Below are positions 50,963 to 55,260 of a stretch of 64,000 nucleotides of DNA, in pieces. The notes below the pieces were generated by a model, which saw only the letters and a program-made list of their open reading frames with translations, searched no databases and was not told the DNA's origin. The stretch covers positions 210,917-274,916 of the forward strand of contig LGRD01000018.1 in the NCBI GenBank assembly GCA_001263235.1, written 5' to 3'. Made by a program: the position numbers and the translations under genes. This stretch comes from Methylibium sp. NZG (GTDB lineage: Bacteria > Pseudomonadota > Gammaproteobacteria > Burkholderiales > Burkholderiaceae_C). Each line of letters opens with the position of its first letter. Position 1 is the first letter of the stretch.

Positions 50963-51721
50963 TCACAGGTACGGAAAGTCCCGCGCCATCGGCTGCAGGT
51001 GGTAGCCGGCGTCGATCATCAAGGTGCTGCCGGTCAACGCCGCGTTGCCGAGCGCAAACGCCACGGCATCGGCCACGTCGGTCGGTTGCACCGTGCGGCC
51101 GGTGAGCGACAGCGCGGCCATGCGCTGCAGCCGGGCATCGTCGATCAGCGCGCTGTCCAGCGCGAGCCCCGGCGCCACGCCGACCACCCGCACCTGCGGC
51201 GCGAGCGCCTTGGCGAGCGTGCGCGTGAGCAGCTCCAGGCCGCCTTTGGACAGCGCGTACGACAGGTAGTCGGGGTTCGGGTTCCACAGCCGCTGGTCGA
51301 GCATCAGCACAAGCGCGCTGCGCACGTCGCGAGCGCCCGCGTGCGCGAGCAGCGCGCGCGCCAGCAGCACGGCGGAGCCGGTGTTGACGCAAGCGTGCTT
51401 GCTGAGCGACGCATAGCTGAACGTGCCCACATCGTCGTGTTCGAACAGGCTCGCGTTGTGCACCACGCCGTCGAGGCGGCCGAAGCGCTCGATCACTGCC
51501 GGCACGAGCGCTGTTGTGGCGGCCTCGTCGGCCAGGTCGGCCCGAAACGATTCGGCGCTGGCACCGTGGTCGCGCAACTGAGCCACCGTCGCGGCCGCAG
51601 CGTCGGCCGAATGGTGGAAGTGCAGTGCGATGTCGTGCCCGCGCTGCGCCAGTTCCAGCGCGATGACGCGGCCCAGGCGCTGTGCGGCGCCGGTGACGAG
51701 GACGACGGGGCGGGAGGGCAT
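50963..51721 (-). CDS. Short-chain dehydrogenase/reductase, pteridine/dihydromonapterin reductase-like
   Basis: [22 protein letters not shown] and the YxxxK motif (YALSKGGL). Trimmed to MPSRPVV at 51721. Confidence 0.8.
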
Positions 51722-51738
51722 GCTTCCTACAATGGGCG

Positions 51739-52929
51739 ATGCACGAACATCAAAGCGCCAGTGTATCGGCGGCACTGTTGCGCTTGGTCCGCGAGGCGAT
51801 TGCCCGCAACGGTGGCTGGTTGCCCTTCGACCGCTTCATGGCGATGGTGTTGTATGCGCCGGGCCTGGGCTACTACGCCAACACCGGCCGCAAGTTCGGG
51901 CACCTGCCGGCCTCGGGCAGCGACTTCGTCACCGCACCGGAGTTGTCGCCGCTGTTCGGCCAGGCGCTGGCGCACCAGGTGGCGCAGGCGCTGCAGGCCA
52001 CCGGCACCGACGAGGTCTGGGAGTTCGGCGCCGGCTCGGGCGCGTTGGCGGCGCAGTTGCTGGGCTCGCTCGGCGCGAGCGTGCGGCGCTACACGATCGT
52101 CGATCTGTCGGCCAGCCTGCGCGAGCGCCAGCAAGAGGCGCTGCGGCGCTGGGCAGGGCAGGTCGCCTGGGCCGATGCGCTGCCCGCGCAGATGCAGGGC
52201 GTCGTCGTCGGCAACGAGGTGCTCGACGCGATGCCGGTGCAACTGCTGCACTTCGGCGCCGAGGGCTGGCAGGAGCGCGGTGTGGTCGTTGACAACGTTG
52301 CCTCGGCAGGCGACCCGGACAGACGCCTGGGCGATCACCCAGCGAGCATCGCGAATCACCGCTCGGCCAGCGATGCGGCTGGCGACGGCGCTGCATTCAC
52401 GTGGGCAGACCGAGCCACCACGCTGTCTGCGCCGTTCGAGTCGCCGCCGCCGATCGGCACCGTCACCGAGGTCCACGCCCAGGCCGAAGCCTTCATCGCC
52501 ACGCTGGCCGAGCGCTTGACGCGCGGCGCGGCGTTCTTCATCGACTACGGGTTTCCGCAAGCCGAGTACTACCACCCGCAGCGCACCGGCGGCACGCTGA
52601 TGTGCCACCGCGCGCACTGCGTGGACGCCGATCCGCTGGCCGACCTGGGGTTGAAGGACATCACCGCGCACGTCAACTTCACCGGCATTGCGCTGGCAGG
52701 GCAGGACGCCGGGCTCGACGTGCTGGGCTACACCAGCCAGGCGCGCTTCCTGCTGAACTGCGGGCTGGGCGAGTTGCTGCAAGGCGCCGATGTGCGAGCG
52801 GCTGTGCCCGCACAGAAGCTGCTGATGGAGCACGAGATGGGAGAGCTCTTCAAGGTGATCGGCTTTGCCAAGGGCGGTGAGTTCGATGCGCTGGGCTTTT
52901 CCAGCGGCGACCGGTCGCACACGCTGTGA
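51739..52929 (+). CDS. SAM-dependent methyltransferase, MidA/NDUFAF7 (DUF185) family
   Basis: FDRFMAMVLYAPGLGYY, DFVTAPELSPLFG and EFGAGSGALA. Confidence 0.8.
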   Translation: MHEHQSASVSAALLRLVREAIARNGGWLPFDRFMAMVLYAPGLGYYANTGRKFGHLPASGSDFVTAPELSPLFGQALAHQVAQALQATGTDEVWEFGAGSGALAAQLLGSLGASVRRYTIVDLSASLRERQQEALRRWAGQVAWADALPAQMQGVVVGNEVLDAMPVQLLHFGAEGWQERGVVVDNVASAGDPDRRLGDHPASIANHRSASDAAGDGAAFTWADRATTLSAPFESPPPIGTVTEVHAQAEAFIATLAERLTRGAAFFIDYGFPQAEYYHPQRTGGTLMCHRAHCVDADPLADLGLKDITAHVNFTGIALAGQDAGLDVLGYTSQARFLLNCGLGELLQGADVRAAVPAQKLLMEHEMGELFKVIGFAKGGEFDALGFSSGDRSHTL

Positions 52930-53034
52930 TGCGCTGGTTTCATCCATCGGGATCGCCAGCGTGATGCGCTGGTATCTCGGGAGCGCCGGCGTGATCCGCT
53001 GGGTTCGATCAGGAGCGCCAACGTGATCCGCTGG
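52926..53034 (+). repeat. Tandem 30-35-nt repeat (3 full copies plus the 5' end of a fourth) duplicating the start region of the DUF2905 gene
   Basis: The units begin at 52926, 52961, 52991 and 53023. Each starts GTGAT(G/C)CGCTGG, and units 1-3 end with GGGA/GGGAG/AGGAG plus 7-8 nt. Confidence 0.85.
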
Positions 53035-53217
53035 CTCATCGTCGTCTTCCTCGCGCTGCTGATCTTCAGCGGCCTGCACCGATGGCTGGAGAAGATCGGC
53101 CTGGGCAAGTTTCCCGGCGACTTTCGTTTCCGGCTGTTCGGGCGTGAGTTCTTCGTGCCACTCACGAGCAGCGTCCTGTTGAGCTTCATCGCTCTGTTGA
53201 TCTCGCAGGCGTTCTAG
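53023..53217 (+). CDS. DUF2905-family small membrane protein
   Basis: 64 aa, MIRWLIVVFLALLIFSGLHRWLEKIGLGKFPGDFRFRLFGREFFVPL... GTG start 7 nt after AGGAG. Confidence 0.8.
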   Translation: MIRWLIVVFLALLIFSGLHRWLEKIGLGKFPGDFRFRLFGREFFVPLTSSVLLSFIALLISQAF

Positions 53218-53247
53218 TAAGGACCGCATTTTTCCCAGGAGCCCGCC

Positions 53248-55260
53248 ATGCTGTCAGCACCGACCCCTGAAGCCGAAGCGTCGCGGCTTGCCGCACTGCT
53301 GTCTCTGGACGTGCTCGACAGCGGCGCGGAACGCGAGTTCGACGCGCTGGTCGGTGCGGCGTCGCGGTTGTGCGGCGTGCCGATCGCGTTGATCAGCCTG
53401 GTCGACGCTCAACGCCAGTGGTTCAAGGCCAACCACGGCCTGCCCGGCATGACCGAGGCGCCTCGGGAGCACGCCTTTTGCGCACACACGGTGCTGGGCG
53501 ACGAGTTGCTCGAAGTGCCCGACACCCGCCAGGACCTACGCTTCGCTGACAACCCGATGGTCGTCGGCGCGCCCCATTTGCGCTTCTACGCCGGTGCGCC
53601 GCTGCAGCTTCGCGACGGTTCGCGCGTCGGCACACTGTGCGTGGCCGACCGGCACCCGCGGCGCTTGAGTGCGGACCAGGCCAAGGCGTTGCAGTGCCTC
53701 GCCACCGTCGCATCGAGCGCACTGGAGCGTCGCCGCGACGGCGTCGAGCTGCGTCGTGCGGTGCGCGCACTGCACGCCAGCGAGGCGCGCTTTCGCACGT
53801 TGAGCGAAGCCGCGCCGCTGGGCGTCTACGCGGCCGACGAGCACGGCTCCTGCACCTACACCAACCCTCGCTGGCAGCAGATTTTCGGGCTGACGGCGCA
53901 GCAAGCGTTCGGCGCCGGCTGGACCCACTCGCTCCACCCTGTGGACCGCGCAGCCGTCTTCGCCGCCTGGAGCAGGGCGACGGCGGCAAGGCAGGAGTTC
54001 GATCTGGAGTTCCGCATCCAGCGGCCGGATGGATCGGTGCGCGAAGTGCGCTCGCGCGCGCGCACCATGGCGGGCGACCGGGGCCAGGCGCTCGGCTTCG
54101 TCGGCTCGGTGGAAGACGTGACGGAGCGCAAGAAGCTGGAGGCCTTCCTCGACCGGACCGGCCGGCTGGCCGGCGTGGGCGGCTGGGAGATGGACCTGCG
54201 AACCGGCGCGATCAGCTGGTCGGCCCAGACCAGCCGCATCCACGAAGTGGAACTCGGCTTCGTGCCCACCCTCGAGCAGGGCGTTGCCTTCTACGCCGAA
54301 GAGGCGCGCCCGGTGATCGAGGCGGCCGTGCACGCCGGCATGCAGCACGGCACGCCCTGGGACCTGGAGCTGCCGCTGGTCACCGCGCAGGGGCGCCACA
54401 TCTGGGTGCGGGCGTTGGGGGAGGTCGAGTTCGAGGCGGGGCGTCCGGTCCGGCTGATCGGGGCGCTGCAGGACGTGACCCAGCAGCGCCTGCGCCGGCT
54501 CGAGCTGCAGCAGGAGCAGACGTTGCGGATACAGCTCGAAGAGCAGGTCCGTGAGACCGAAGGCCTGCTGCGCGAACGCAGTGAAATGCTCGACGTGATG
54601 GCGCACGAAGTCCGCCAGCCGCTCAACAACGCCTCGGCGGCGCTGCAAAGCGCAGGCCATGCCCTGGCCGGCGTCAGCGACAAACGATCCGTCGCGTCGC
54701 GCCTGCAGCGCGCCCAGACCGTGTTGGGCCAGGTGCTGGGCAGCATCGACAACACGCTGGCGGTGGCGTCGCTGCTGGCGCAGCCGGAGCCGATCGACCG
54801 CGGCGAATACACCGACATCGACGCGCTGATCAGCGTCGTCGTCGCCGACGTGCCGGCCCCCGAGCGGGGGCGCATTCGGGTGGAGCGACCGAGCAGAACA
54901 CGCACTGCCTCGATGGACATGAGCCTGATGCGCCTGGCGCTGCGCAACGTGCTGTCCAACGCACTGAAGTACAGCCCGCCGGCGTCTGTGGTGACCTTGG
55001 CGGTGTGCGACTCCGACGAGCCGCTGGCGGTGGTCTTCGACGTTGCCAACGAAGGCGCGGGGCTGACTGCCGACACCGTCGAGCGGCTGTTCCTGCGCGG
55101 AGCCAAGCACGGCGGCGTGCGGCAGGGCCACGGGCTGGGCCTGGGCCTGTACATCGTGCGGCGCGTGATGGACCTGCACGGCGGCAGCGTGACCCTGTCG
55201 CAAAACGGGCCCGAACAGGTGGTCATGCGCCTCGTCGTCAACCAGCCCCTGGGCGACTGA
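53248..55260 (+). CDS. Cytoplasmic GAF-PAS-PAS sensor histidine kinase
   Basis: N-terminal GAF domain (ALISLVDAQRQWFKANHG...FCAHTV...FYAGAPL), two PAS/PAC segments, H-box MAHEVRQPLNN and G2 box GHGLGLGLYIVRRVMDLHGG. No TM segment. Confidence 0.88.
   Translation: MLSAPTPEAEASRLAALLSLDVLDSGAEREFDALVGAASRLCGVPIALISLVDAQRQWFKANHGLPGMTEAPREHAFCAHTVLGDELLEVPDTRQDLRFADNPMVVGAPHLRFYAGAPLQLRDGSRVGTLCVADRHPRRLSADQAKALQCLATVASSALERRRDGVELRRAVRALHASEARFRTLSEAAPLGVYAADEHGSCTYTNPRWQQIFGLTAQQAFGAGWTHSLHPVDRAAVFAAWSRATAARQEFDLEFRIQRPDGSVREVRSRARTMAGDRGQALGFVGSVEDVTERKKLEAFLDRTGRLAGVGGWEMDLRTGAISWSAQTSRIHEVELGFVPTLEQGVAFYAEEARPVIEAAVHAGMQHGTPWDLELPLVTAQGRHIWVRALGEVEFEAGRPVRLIGALQDVTQQRLRRLELQQEQTLRIQLEEQVRETEGLLRERSEMLDVMAHEVRQPLNNASAALQSAGHALAGVSDKRSVASRLQRAQTVLGQVLGSIDNTLAVASLLAQPEPIDRGEYTDIDALISVVVADVPAPERGRIRVERPSRTRTASMDMSLMRLALRNVLSNALKYSPPASVVTLAVCDSDEPLAVVFDVANEGAGLTADTVERLFLRGAKHGGVRQGHGLGLGLYIVRRVMDLHGGSVTLSQNGPEQVVMRLVVNQPLGD

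Follow-up and report, generated by a model that had tools for sequence, protein, structure and literature searches.

The closest natural precedent for the element described here is the mycobacterial interspersed repetitive unit (MIRU; Supply et al. 1997, summarised in PMC12548453 section 11; PMC3184786). As those summaries describe them, MIRUs are short tandem units lying within operons between co-directional genes, their number varies between close relatives, and each unit holds a small open reading frame (ORF) that overlaps the adjacent stop and start codons at its two ends, with a -4 spacing. Their supposed role is to maintain translation of the downstream gene by coupling, short ORFs being able to 'deliver' ribosomes (PMC12548453 section 11). 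The same architecture was found in a 64,000-nt stretch of DNA from Methylibium sp. NZG (GenBank assembly GCA_001263235.1, contig LGRD01000018.1, positions 210,917 to 274,916; hereafter the window), where three extra copies of a gene's own start region separate a MidA-type methyltransferase gene from a gene for a DUF2905 small membrane protein, and we propose the same role for it. The likeness is one of architecture as described. According to the summaries, MIRUs measure 40-100 bp, occur at ~40-50 dispersed loci and have an inserted (mobile) look, whereas the units here are 30-35 nt long and occupy one locus. Unlike in MIRUs, the head of each unit copies the first four codons of the downstream gene itself, and the host belongs to the order Burkholderiales. 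Of the features by which MIRUs are recognized, the locus thus has a variable tandem number and an overlapping ORF, and has neither interspersion nor the 40-100 bp unit size.

Each step of the array carries the NTGA and TGATG overlap motifs at which termination-reinitiation has been studied (Huber et al. 2019, PMC6728339; Huber et al. 2023, PMC10666635). At overlaps of the -4/-1 type the process works efficiently (PMC6728339). Coupling by this route is nearly abolished at an untranslated spacer of ~20 nt in E. coli and Haloferax, and reinitiation without a bridge was shown to fail at distances such as the one found here (PMC10666635). As in many of these natural overlapping pairs, the first restart at the present locus lacks a Shine-Dalgarno (SD) sequence; unlike in those pairs, two to four overlaps stand in series, connected through non-conserved mini-ORFs and spanning up to 128 nt. 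Synthetic bicistronic designs (BCD) and two-cistron cassettes (PMC12548453 section 11; PMC10367133) use a leader ORF that holds the downstream SD and ends on the downstream start. The third unit of our array has the BCD layout, with AGGAG (53011-53015) inside the second mini-ORF, a distance of 7 nt and then GTGA at 53023, but it is natural, tandem and fed by the upstream gene via a further overlap instead of by a strong SD of its own. Chains of small ORFs have also been reported in Mycobacterium tuberculosis, where upstream ORFs (uORFs) overlap each other and annotated genes by 4 nt or 1 nt at NUGA motifs, as here (bioRxiv 10.1101/2022.06.01.494293); those uORFs are 5' leader ORFs without tandem repeats, copy-number variation or a duplicated gene start, unlike the array in the window.

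We consider it fairly probable that the array is a repeat generated by slippage that has persisted because each unit relays ribosomes from one gene to the next by termination-reinitiation. Its mini-ORFs would then be translated, and we infer that DUF2905 would be fed by reinitiation and not by independent SD-driven initiation. The genes, units and mini-ORFs of the locus are as follows.

51739..52929, + strand: Methyltransf_28/MidA-type methyltransferase gene (ORF list; PF02636, E 3.1e-54)
52926..52960, + strand: unit 1 (35 nt), head GTGATGCGCTGG, middle TTTCATCCATC, tail GGGATCGCCAGC (sequence, Tandem Repeats Finder)
52926..52964, + strand: mini-ORF 1, 12 codons, MMRWFHPSGSPA, translated V/M-MRWFHPSGSPA and stop
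52961..52990, + strand: unit 2 (30 nt), head GTGATGCGCTGG, tail GGGAGCGCCGGC (sequence)
52961..53026, + strand: mini-ORF 2, 21 codons, MMRWYLGSAGVIRWVRSGAPT, translated V/M-MRWYLGSAGVIRWVRSGAPT and stop
52991..53022, + strand: unit 3 (32 nt, canonical), head GTGATCCGCTGG, tail CAGGAGCGCCAAC (sequence)
53023..53217, + strand: DUF2905 small membrane-protein gene (64 aa), GTG start (PF11146, E 2.6e-18)

An earlier note on this DNA had described tandem copies of the DUF2905 start region at 52926, 52961, 52991 and 53023, and both the coordinates and the sequences were found to be as it gave them. The three extra units together fill 97 nt (35+30+32 nt, 52926-53022), and every one of them opens with GTGATSCGCTGG, corresponding to the first four DUF2905 codons (start at 53023). 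The head of unit 3, GTGATCCGCTGG, is identical to the real gene start, and its tail, which provides the SD-like AGGAG, is identical to that of a congener (L191). Tandem Repeats Finder reported the repeat at 52945-53041 with a period of 30, 3.2 copies, 78% matches and a score of 115. The overlaps were also as the note had laid them out. The MidA-type gene ends at TGA 52927-52929, within the GTGATG that begins unit 1 at 52926, which is evident from both the sequence and the ORF list, and GTG 52926 (as GTGA) and ATG 52929 (as TGATG) both overlap this stop. Translation confirmed the 12-codon mini-ORF, which stops at TGA 52962-52964 within the GTGATG of unit 2, as well as the 21-codon mini-ORF, which passes through unit 3 and stops at TGA 53024-53026, on GTG 53023. 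As unit 2 measures 30 nt, GTG 52991 is in frame with GTG 52961, and mini-ORF 2 therefore continues through unit 3 with GTG 52991 as an internal in-frame start codon. The window thus holds GTGA/TGATG motifs at 52926-52931 and 52961-52966 and a GTGA at 53023-53026. The frame of mini-ORF 2 is also open upstream to TTG 52865 within MidA (52865-53026, + strand; a 53-aa ORF), which is probably just the usual open off-frame of a G+C-rich gene.

The start of DUF2905 at GTG 53023 is genuine, since the match to PF11146 spans residues 3-63 of the protein, aligned to profile positions 2-63 of 64 (a full-length match). The N-terminus MIRW is kept in all relatives compared, and a look-up of the exact protein returned nothing on record. 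No promoter-like or terminator-like site was seen between the MidA-type gene and DUF2905 on the + strand of 51400-53500.

In the proposed relay, a ribosome ending the MidA-type gene at TGA 52927 would reinitiate without an SD at GTG 52926 or ATG 52929, translate mini-ORF 1 and terminate at TGA 52962. It would restart at GTG 52961 or ATG 52964 and translate mini-ORF 2, a frame that ribosomes recruited by GGGAG could also enter at GTG 52991, and termination at TGA 53024 would be followed by an AGGAG-assisted restart at GTG 53023. The ribosomes recruited by GGGAG and AGGAG would add to the relay flow. Units would be gained and lost via slippage or unequal exchange between the 12-nt heads, and arrays would persist only with the chain kept, as the coupling given by the ancestral GTGA overlap would be lost across a long untranslated stretch. 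The translated spacer may also shield against Rho, as tight coupling of overlapping ORFs in M. tuberculosis has been proposed to protect from Rho termination (bioRxiv 10.1101/2022.06.01.494293), but Rho shielding alone would not need ORFs that end exactly on the next start.

The earlier note had named a comparison of this junction in related genomes as a check on its proposal. Near relatives were found via a search with the DUF2905 protein and fetched by exact protein, many of them being metagenome contigs. The number of units among close relatives was 0, 1, 2, 3 or 4, and the stop-start chain of GTGA overlaps ran unbroken to the DUF2905 start in 28 of the 28 arrays examined. Among congeners, G005 (L004) has no extra unit and its MidA stop overlaps the DUF2905 start directly (CTGTGATCC), L003, L005, L011 and L191 have one 32-nt unit, and L002 has two. 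The arrays of further relatives are composed as follows.

L197: 4 x 32 nt
L192, L200, L201, L207: 3 x 32 nt
L193: 14+32+32 nt
L195, L202, L205: 2 x 32 nt
L198/L199: 35+32 nt
L194, L196, L203, L206, L208, L209: 1 x 32 nt

Contigs encoding one identical DUF2905 protein (P0036) carry 1, 2 or 3 units, and those encoding another (P0011) carry 1 or 2, which points to variation among very closely related genomes within the same samples. Two sister pairs differ by exactly one unit (L055 vs L056; L114 vs L168). The unit length was 32 nt in 44 of 49 units; the rest were 35 nt (three units), 14 nt (one) and 30 nt (unit 2 of the window), the last being the sole unit with a length other than 32 plus or minus a multiple of 3, for which the in-frame fusion with unit 3 restores the chain. 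The 35-nt first unit is also present in L198/L199, where it is similar to unit 1 of the window. Each head holds a GTGA and 32 is 2 mod 3, and a canonical unit is therefore an 11-codon mini-ORF reaching from the previous stop to the next start. The 4.78-Mb genome has just 21 occurrences of the head motif RTGATSCGCTGG on its two strands, four of them at this locus, and blastn-short searches of the units against the whole genome gave a match at this locus only. Matches to the tail-plus-head pattern elsewhere in the genome lie inside ordinary coding sequence, and a genome-wide run of Tandem Repeats Finder gave no other array with RTGA in each unit and a period indivisible by 3. Judged from these sequences, the array is a locus-specific variable-number tandem repeat (VNTR) with a canonical unit of 32 nt. 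A mobile or dispersed element was rejected for this genome, as blastn-short and the pattern scans give one locus. Two other tandem arrays with periods of 32-33 nt, not multiples of 3 throughout, were seen in the genome (contigs C7:97444-97592 and C39:70032-70156); their units contain G+C-rich hairpins followed by A-rich runs, and they have a terminator-like look and are unrelated in sequence to the MidA-DUF2905 array.

The variation in copy number agrees with the earlier note insofar as it considered the repeat a slippage product, and it invites the view that the array is a neutral minisatellite, whose copies have no role while DUF2905 is translated from its own AGGAG SD. The chain would then be merely inherited, because each copy carries GTGA and 32 is 2 mod 3. 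This is a less likely explanation. In its favour, arrays range freely between 0 and 4 copies, also where the encoded DUF2905 protein is the same, part of the units are exact copies of each other (L197), the SD in the last unit reaches -6.3 kcal/mol, and one congener has no array. The explanation leaves unaccounted for that strongly diverged units stay at 32 nt or at 32 plus or minus multiples of 3, and the geometry exceeds what a mere copying accident would give. Two further facts that it does not explain came from the same junction in more distant genomes.

The MidA-type gene is followed by DUF2905 on the same strand in 153 of 190 loci from many Burkholderiales genera, often with a 4-nt overlap. 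These 153 loci, from genomes and metagenomes of the order, gave 142 distinct junctions. A direct GTGA overlap was found in 10 of the 142, on several deep branches of the tree, and indicates that the ancestral state of the junction is a plain direct overlap. One bridging mini-ORF leads from the MidA stop to the DUF2905 start in 38 junctions and a two-step chain in 6, while the remaining 88 have no chain, mostly through TAA/TAG stops or a stop without a preceding start codon. The one-step spacers measure 11, 14, 17, 20, 26, 29, 32, 38, 41, 44 or 173 nt, all of them 2 mod 3, and many have no sequence relation to one another. This bridging by unrelated spacers (11-44 nt) in other lineages is the first of the two facts. 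On a tree of the flanking coding DNA, the states chain, direct and none change 29 times.

The second is the way in which spacer length has changed, for which parsimony counts were made on the flanking-DNA tree; these were used in place of spacer clustering at 60% identity, which over-merged short GC-rich spacers. Where both overlap ports are present (42 junctions, spacers of <=60 nt), there were 26 changes of length but only 8 changes of length mod 3, where random assignment of classes expects 14.0 +/- 2.1 (14 of 1000 randomisations reach the observed 8; binomial 2e-4). Port-lacking junctions (n=70) showed 35 changes of length and 20 of the mod-3 class, against 18.8 expected (753/1000). The raw counts, which ignore phylogeny, point the same way, with the bridging length class in 32 of 42 both-port junctions vs 18 of 70 port-lacking ones (Fisher 2e-7). 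A sign test on independent pairs, ports vs length class, had a median p of 0.5 and was under-powered, with 7 pairs on supported branches. Taken as they stand, the counts indicate that length evolves in a frame-preserving way specifically at junctions that allow a relay. The termination-reinitiation relay that the earlier note had proposed for the window is thus strengthened by the unbroken chains and by the conservation of frame through changes in length.

The units themselves have a conserved 12-nt head (GTG ATC CGC TGG; the start codon and I/M-R-W), a free middle of ~8 nt and a semi-conserved 12-nt tail with the consensus GGAGCGCCRRC, which places an SD-like GGAG 7-8 nt ahead of the next start. 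SD strength was expressed as the energy of the duplex with the anti-SD, for which the background is -3.0 kcal/mol. Along the chain in the window the energies were -2.9 (52926), -3.8 (52961), -6.3 (52991) and -6.3 kcal/mol (53023), in line with the improvement that had been noticed from the letters. Across the junctions compared, DUF2905 starts behind a bridging ORF had a mean SD of -4.8 kcal/mol (41% at or below -6), direct-overlap starts -2.9 kcal/mol (none at or below -6) and starts behind unbridged spacers -3.05 kcal/mol (11% at or below -6). At the MidA stop, where the first mini-ORF begins, there is no SD (mean -0.9 kcal/mol). The pattern fits the expectation for SD-independent reinitiation followed by SD-assisted hand-over.

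The tail's CCRRC, extended by the G of GTG, can form a stem with the CGYTGG in the head that follows, leaving the stop/start in a 5-nt loop. Energy calculations for the window gave three such stems.

52956..52972, + strand: hairpin at the unit 1/2 boundary, CCAGCG / CGCTGG, UGAUG in the loop, -9.8 kcal/mol
52986..53002, + strand: equivalent stem, -9.3 kcal/mol
53018..53034, + strand: equivalent stem with an A.C mismatch, -6.3 kcal/mol (the weakest, at the real start)

A 6-bp hairpin around each stop/start is probable. Over 52 distinct boundaries, 88.5% of the cells pair, compared to 23-47% with slid partners, and the covariation score is 0.149 vs 0.104 +/- 0.011 in shuffles (0 of 500 reach 0.149), to be read with the caveat that related sequences can beat every shuffle without any structure. 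The region also folds better than its shuffles (z = -2.26). It might accordingly be asked whether the CCRRCG-N5-CGYTGG stems, recurring every ~32 nt, are what is functional, with the mini-ORFs incidental; such an array might affect how stable the mRNA is, bind a protein or keep ribosomes from initiating independently. The pairing and covariation, the hairpin energies (-6.3 to -9.8 kcal/mol) and the G-U pairs, which indicate RNA of the + strand and not a DNA palindrome, speak for this explanation, which is nevertheless improbable. A single stem position covaries (A-U in 21 boundaries, G-C in 13, U-A in 2, G-U in 1) and is unpaired in 15 of the 52, the stem is absent from bridging spacers outside the 32-nt family, Rfam gave no match for the region, and structure does not explain the mod-3 rule for length. 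Moreover, the stem is compatible with a relay, as the RNA-unfolding form of coupling, and is in that sense not an alternative to it.

The peptides of the mini-ORFs are not conserved. Only M-I/M-R-W and a C-terminal A-P-T/A recur, because the nucleotide head and tail dictate them, and the middles are free. The GC content by codon position peaks at position 3 of the mini-ORFs (0.64, 0.69 and 0.78, with 0.84 at position 3 in the 32-nt family) and not in the DUF2905 frame, a composition that speaks for the relay. A regulatory leader peptide, in the manner of an attenuation or stalling uORF, was considered and rejected, as there is no conserved peptide or set of codons and bridging ORFs elsewhere have 3-57 codons of unrelated sequence.

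The spacer could alternatively be coding, either as an N-terminal extension of DUF2905 from an ATG in MidA or as part of a MidA-DUF2905 fusion made by frameshift or TGA readthrough, in which case the mod-3 rule for length would stem from that frame. With one 32-nt unit the DUF2905 frame is indeed open upstream into MidA, and gene callers give models of 72-88 aa (MRW...); in the window, the MidA TGA is in frame with the DUF2905 start (52927-53025), with 96 nt free of any further stop. Still, we regard a coding spacer as very improbable. Eight single-bridge junctions have no in-frame upstream start and the position of the start varies elsewhere, the DUF2905 frame is interrupted by stops in two-step chains, the peptides of the extension lack conservation, the periodicity in GC gives no preference to that frame, and the Pfam profile starts at the annotated DUF2905 start. 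In addition, MidA and DUF2905 stand in a different frame relation to each other depending on whether an array has 0, 1, 2 or 3 units, so that no single recoding event can be conserved. The extended protein, the frameshift fusion and the readthrough fusion were therefore rejected on frame, stop, conservation, GC-phase and Pfam evidence. Readthrough of the TGA in the window would yield a fusion of MidA and DUF2905, at this copy number only and not conserved in relatives. The 72-88 aa 'DUF2905' calls in public records (P0015, P0016, P0018, P0027, P0031 and others) come from genomes with one 32-nt unit and start at an ATG within MidA, in another frame (MRWALPAATGRTRCD...); they are probably a recurrent annotation artefact.

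Several observations weigh against a relay by termination-reinitiation. Congener G005 has no unit at all, from which it follows that the relay is dispensable. Together with the 1-4 units found in near-identical backgrounds, this congener also shows that the number of units is not critical. Given the good SD of the last unit (AGGAG, -6.3 kcal/mol), DUF2905 could be translated independently of the relay. Each reinitiation step probably loses ribosomes, and a relay of two to four steps may therefore pass few. Recent duplicates inherit their constant unit length, which does not count as evidence of selection. Being built on a quick tree and parsimony, the phylogeny-aware frame test is approximate, with a randomisation p of ~0.01, and some junctions with both ports have no bridge (L059, L115, L089, L112, L174).

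Copy numbers taken from short-read metagenome assemblies can also be wrong, as exemplified by scaffold L204, in which a run of N interrupts the repeat and the 5' end of DUF2905 is duplicated; the VNTR at this junction is evidently dealt with wrongly by assemblers and scaffolders. That the number of units in the present genome was itself made by the assembler is unlikely in the extreme. The N gap of the related L204 lends the idea some colour, but the three units differ in length (35, 30 and 32 nt) and sequence (78% matches), the whole 97-nt array is shorter than one ordinary read, and homologous arrays of 1-4 units occur in many independent assemblies.

A bolder variant of the relay would see in the 32-nt module a self-expanding, locally born 'coupling cassette' that acts as a translational rheostat. 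The module would combine the stop/start overlap and the SD with a hairpin masking the start until an upstream ribosome opens it, and slippage would shift the number of relay steps, and hence the DUF2905:MidA output ratio, within populations. The locus would then be of the contingency type, tuning expression instead of switching it on and off. We put this forward tentatively and think it rather doubtful; if it is true, the start of a gene could by itself give rise to MIRU-like relay repeats de novo, with no mobile element, and bridging mini-ORFs would be a general route for widening -4 overlaps without losing coupling.

With the simpler termination-reinitiation relay, the locus shows how evolution may bypass the ~20-nt limit on coupling, the gap being filled with tiny ORFs linked stop to start. 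It offers a natural series of 0-4 relay steps in near-identical backgrounds, usable for measuring the efficiency of reinitiation per step, and illustrates that a MIRU-like architecture exists outside the actinobacteria and can be locus-specific and not mobile. That spacers of unrelated sequence at one conserved junction evolve with the frame preserved is comparative evidence for selection on coupling itself, and hints that the MidA-type methyltransferase and DUF2905 need a fixed ratio, perhaps through acting together. Gene overlaps are reported to be enriched for subunits of complexes (PMC10666635), and by analogy the two proteins may act together. On the practical side, the repeat misleads gene callers, as in the 72-88 aa DUF2905 models, and scaffolders.

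As to where the first unit came from, the match to the DUF2905 start is confined to the 12-nt head; neither the MidA tail nor DUF2905 from codon 5 on is significantly similar to the tails and middles of the units. In unit 1, the part outside the head can be aligned with the final 31 nt of MidA (p = 0.004, uncorrected), and unit 1 of L061 likewise resembles this MidA end (p = 0.05), whereas most units show no similarity of this kind. A plain duplication of the junction between MidA tail and DUF2905 head was for this reason not demonstrated as the source of the unit, only these two first units resembling the MidA tail. One further match lies upstream.

52885..52894, + strand: GATGCGCTGG within the MidA coding sequence (codons F-D-A-L-G), 43 nt upstream of an identical 10-mer at 52928

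The copy in MidA is a possible source or partner of the head variant seen in units 1 and 2, and the pair of identical GATGCGCTGG 10-mers hints at mispairing between them.

Insertions of a different kind were seen at the MidA-DUF2905 junction in other genera (L020, L131, L139/L140 and L092/L095). They are 120-220 nt long and contain long G+C-rich inverted repeats, which gives them the look of repetitive extragenic palindromic (REP) sequences or miniature inverted-repeat transposable elements (MITEs), and L020 carries an 18-nt tandem repeat in addition. The junction seems to be a hotspot for insertion.

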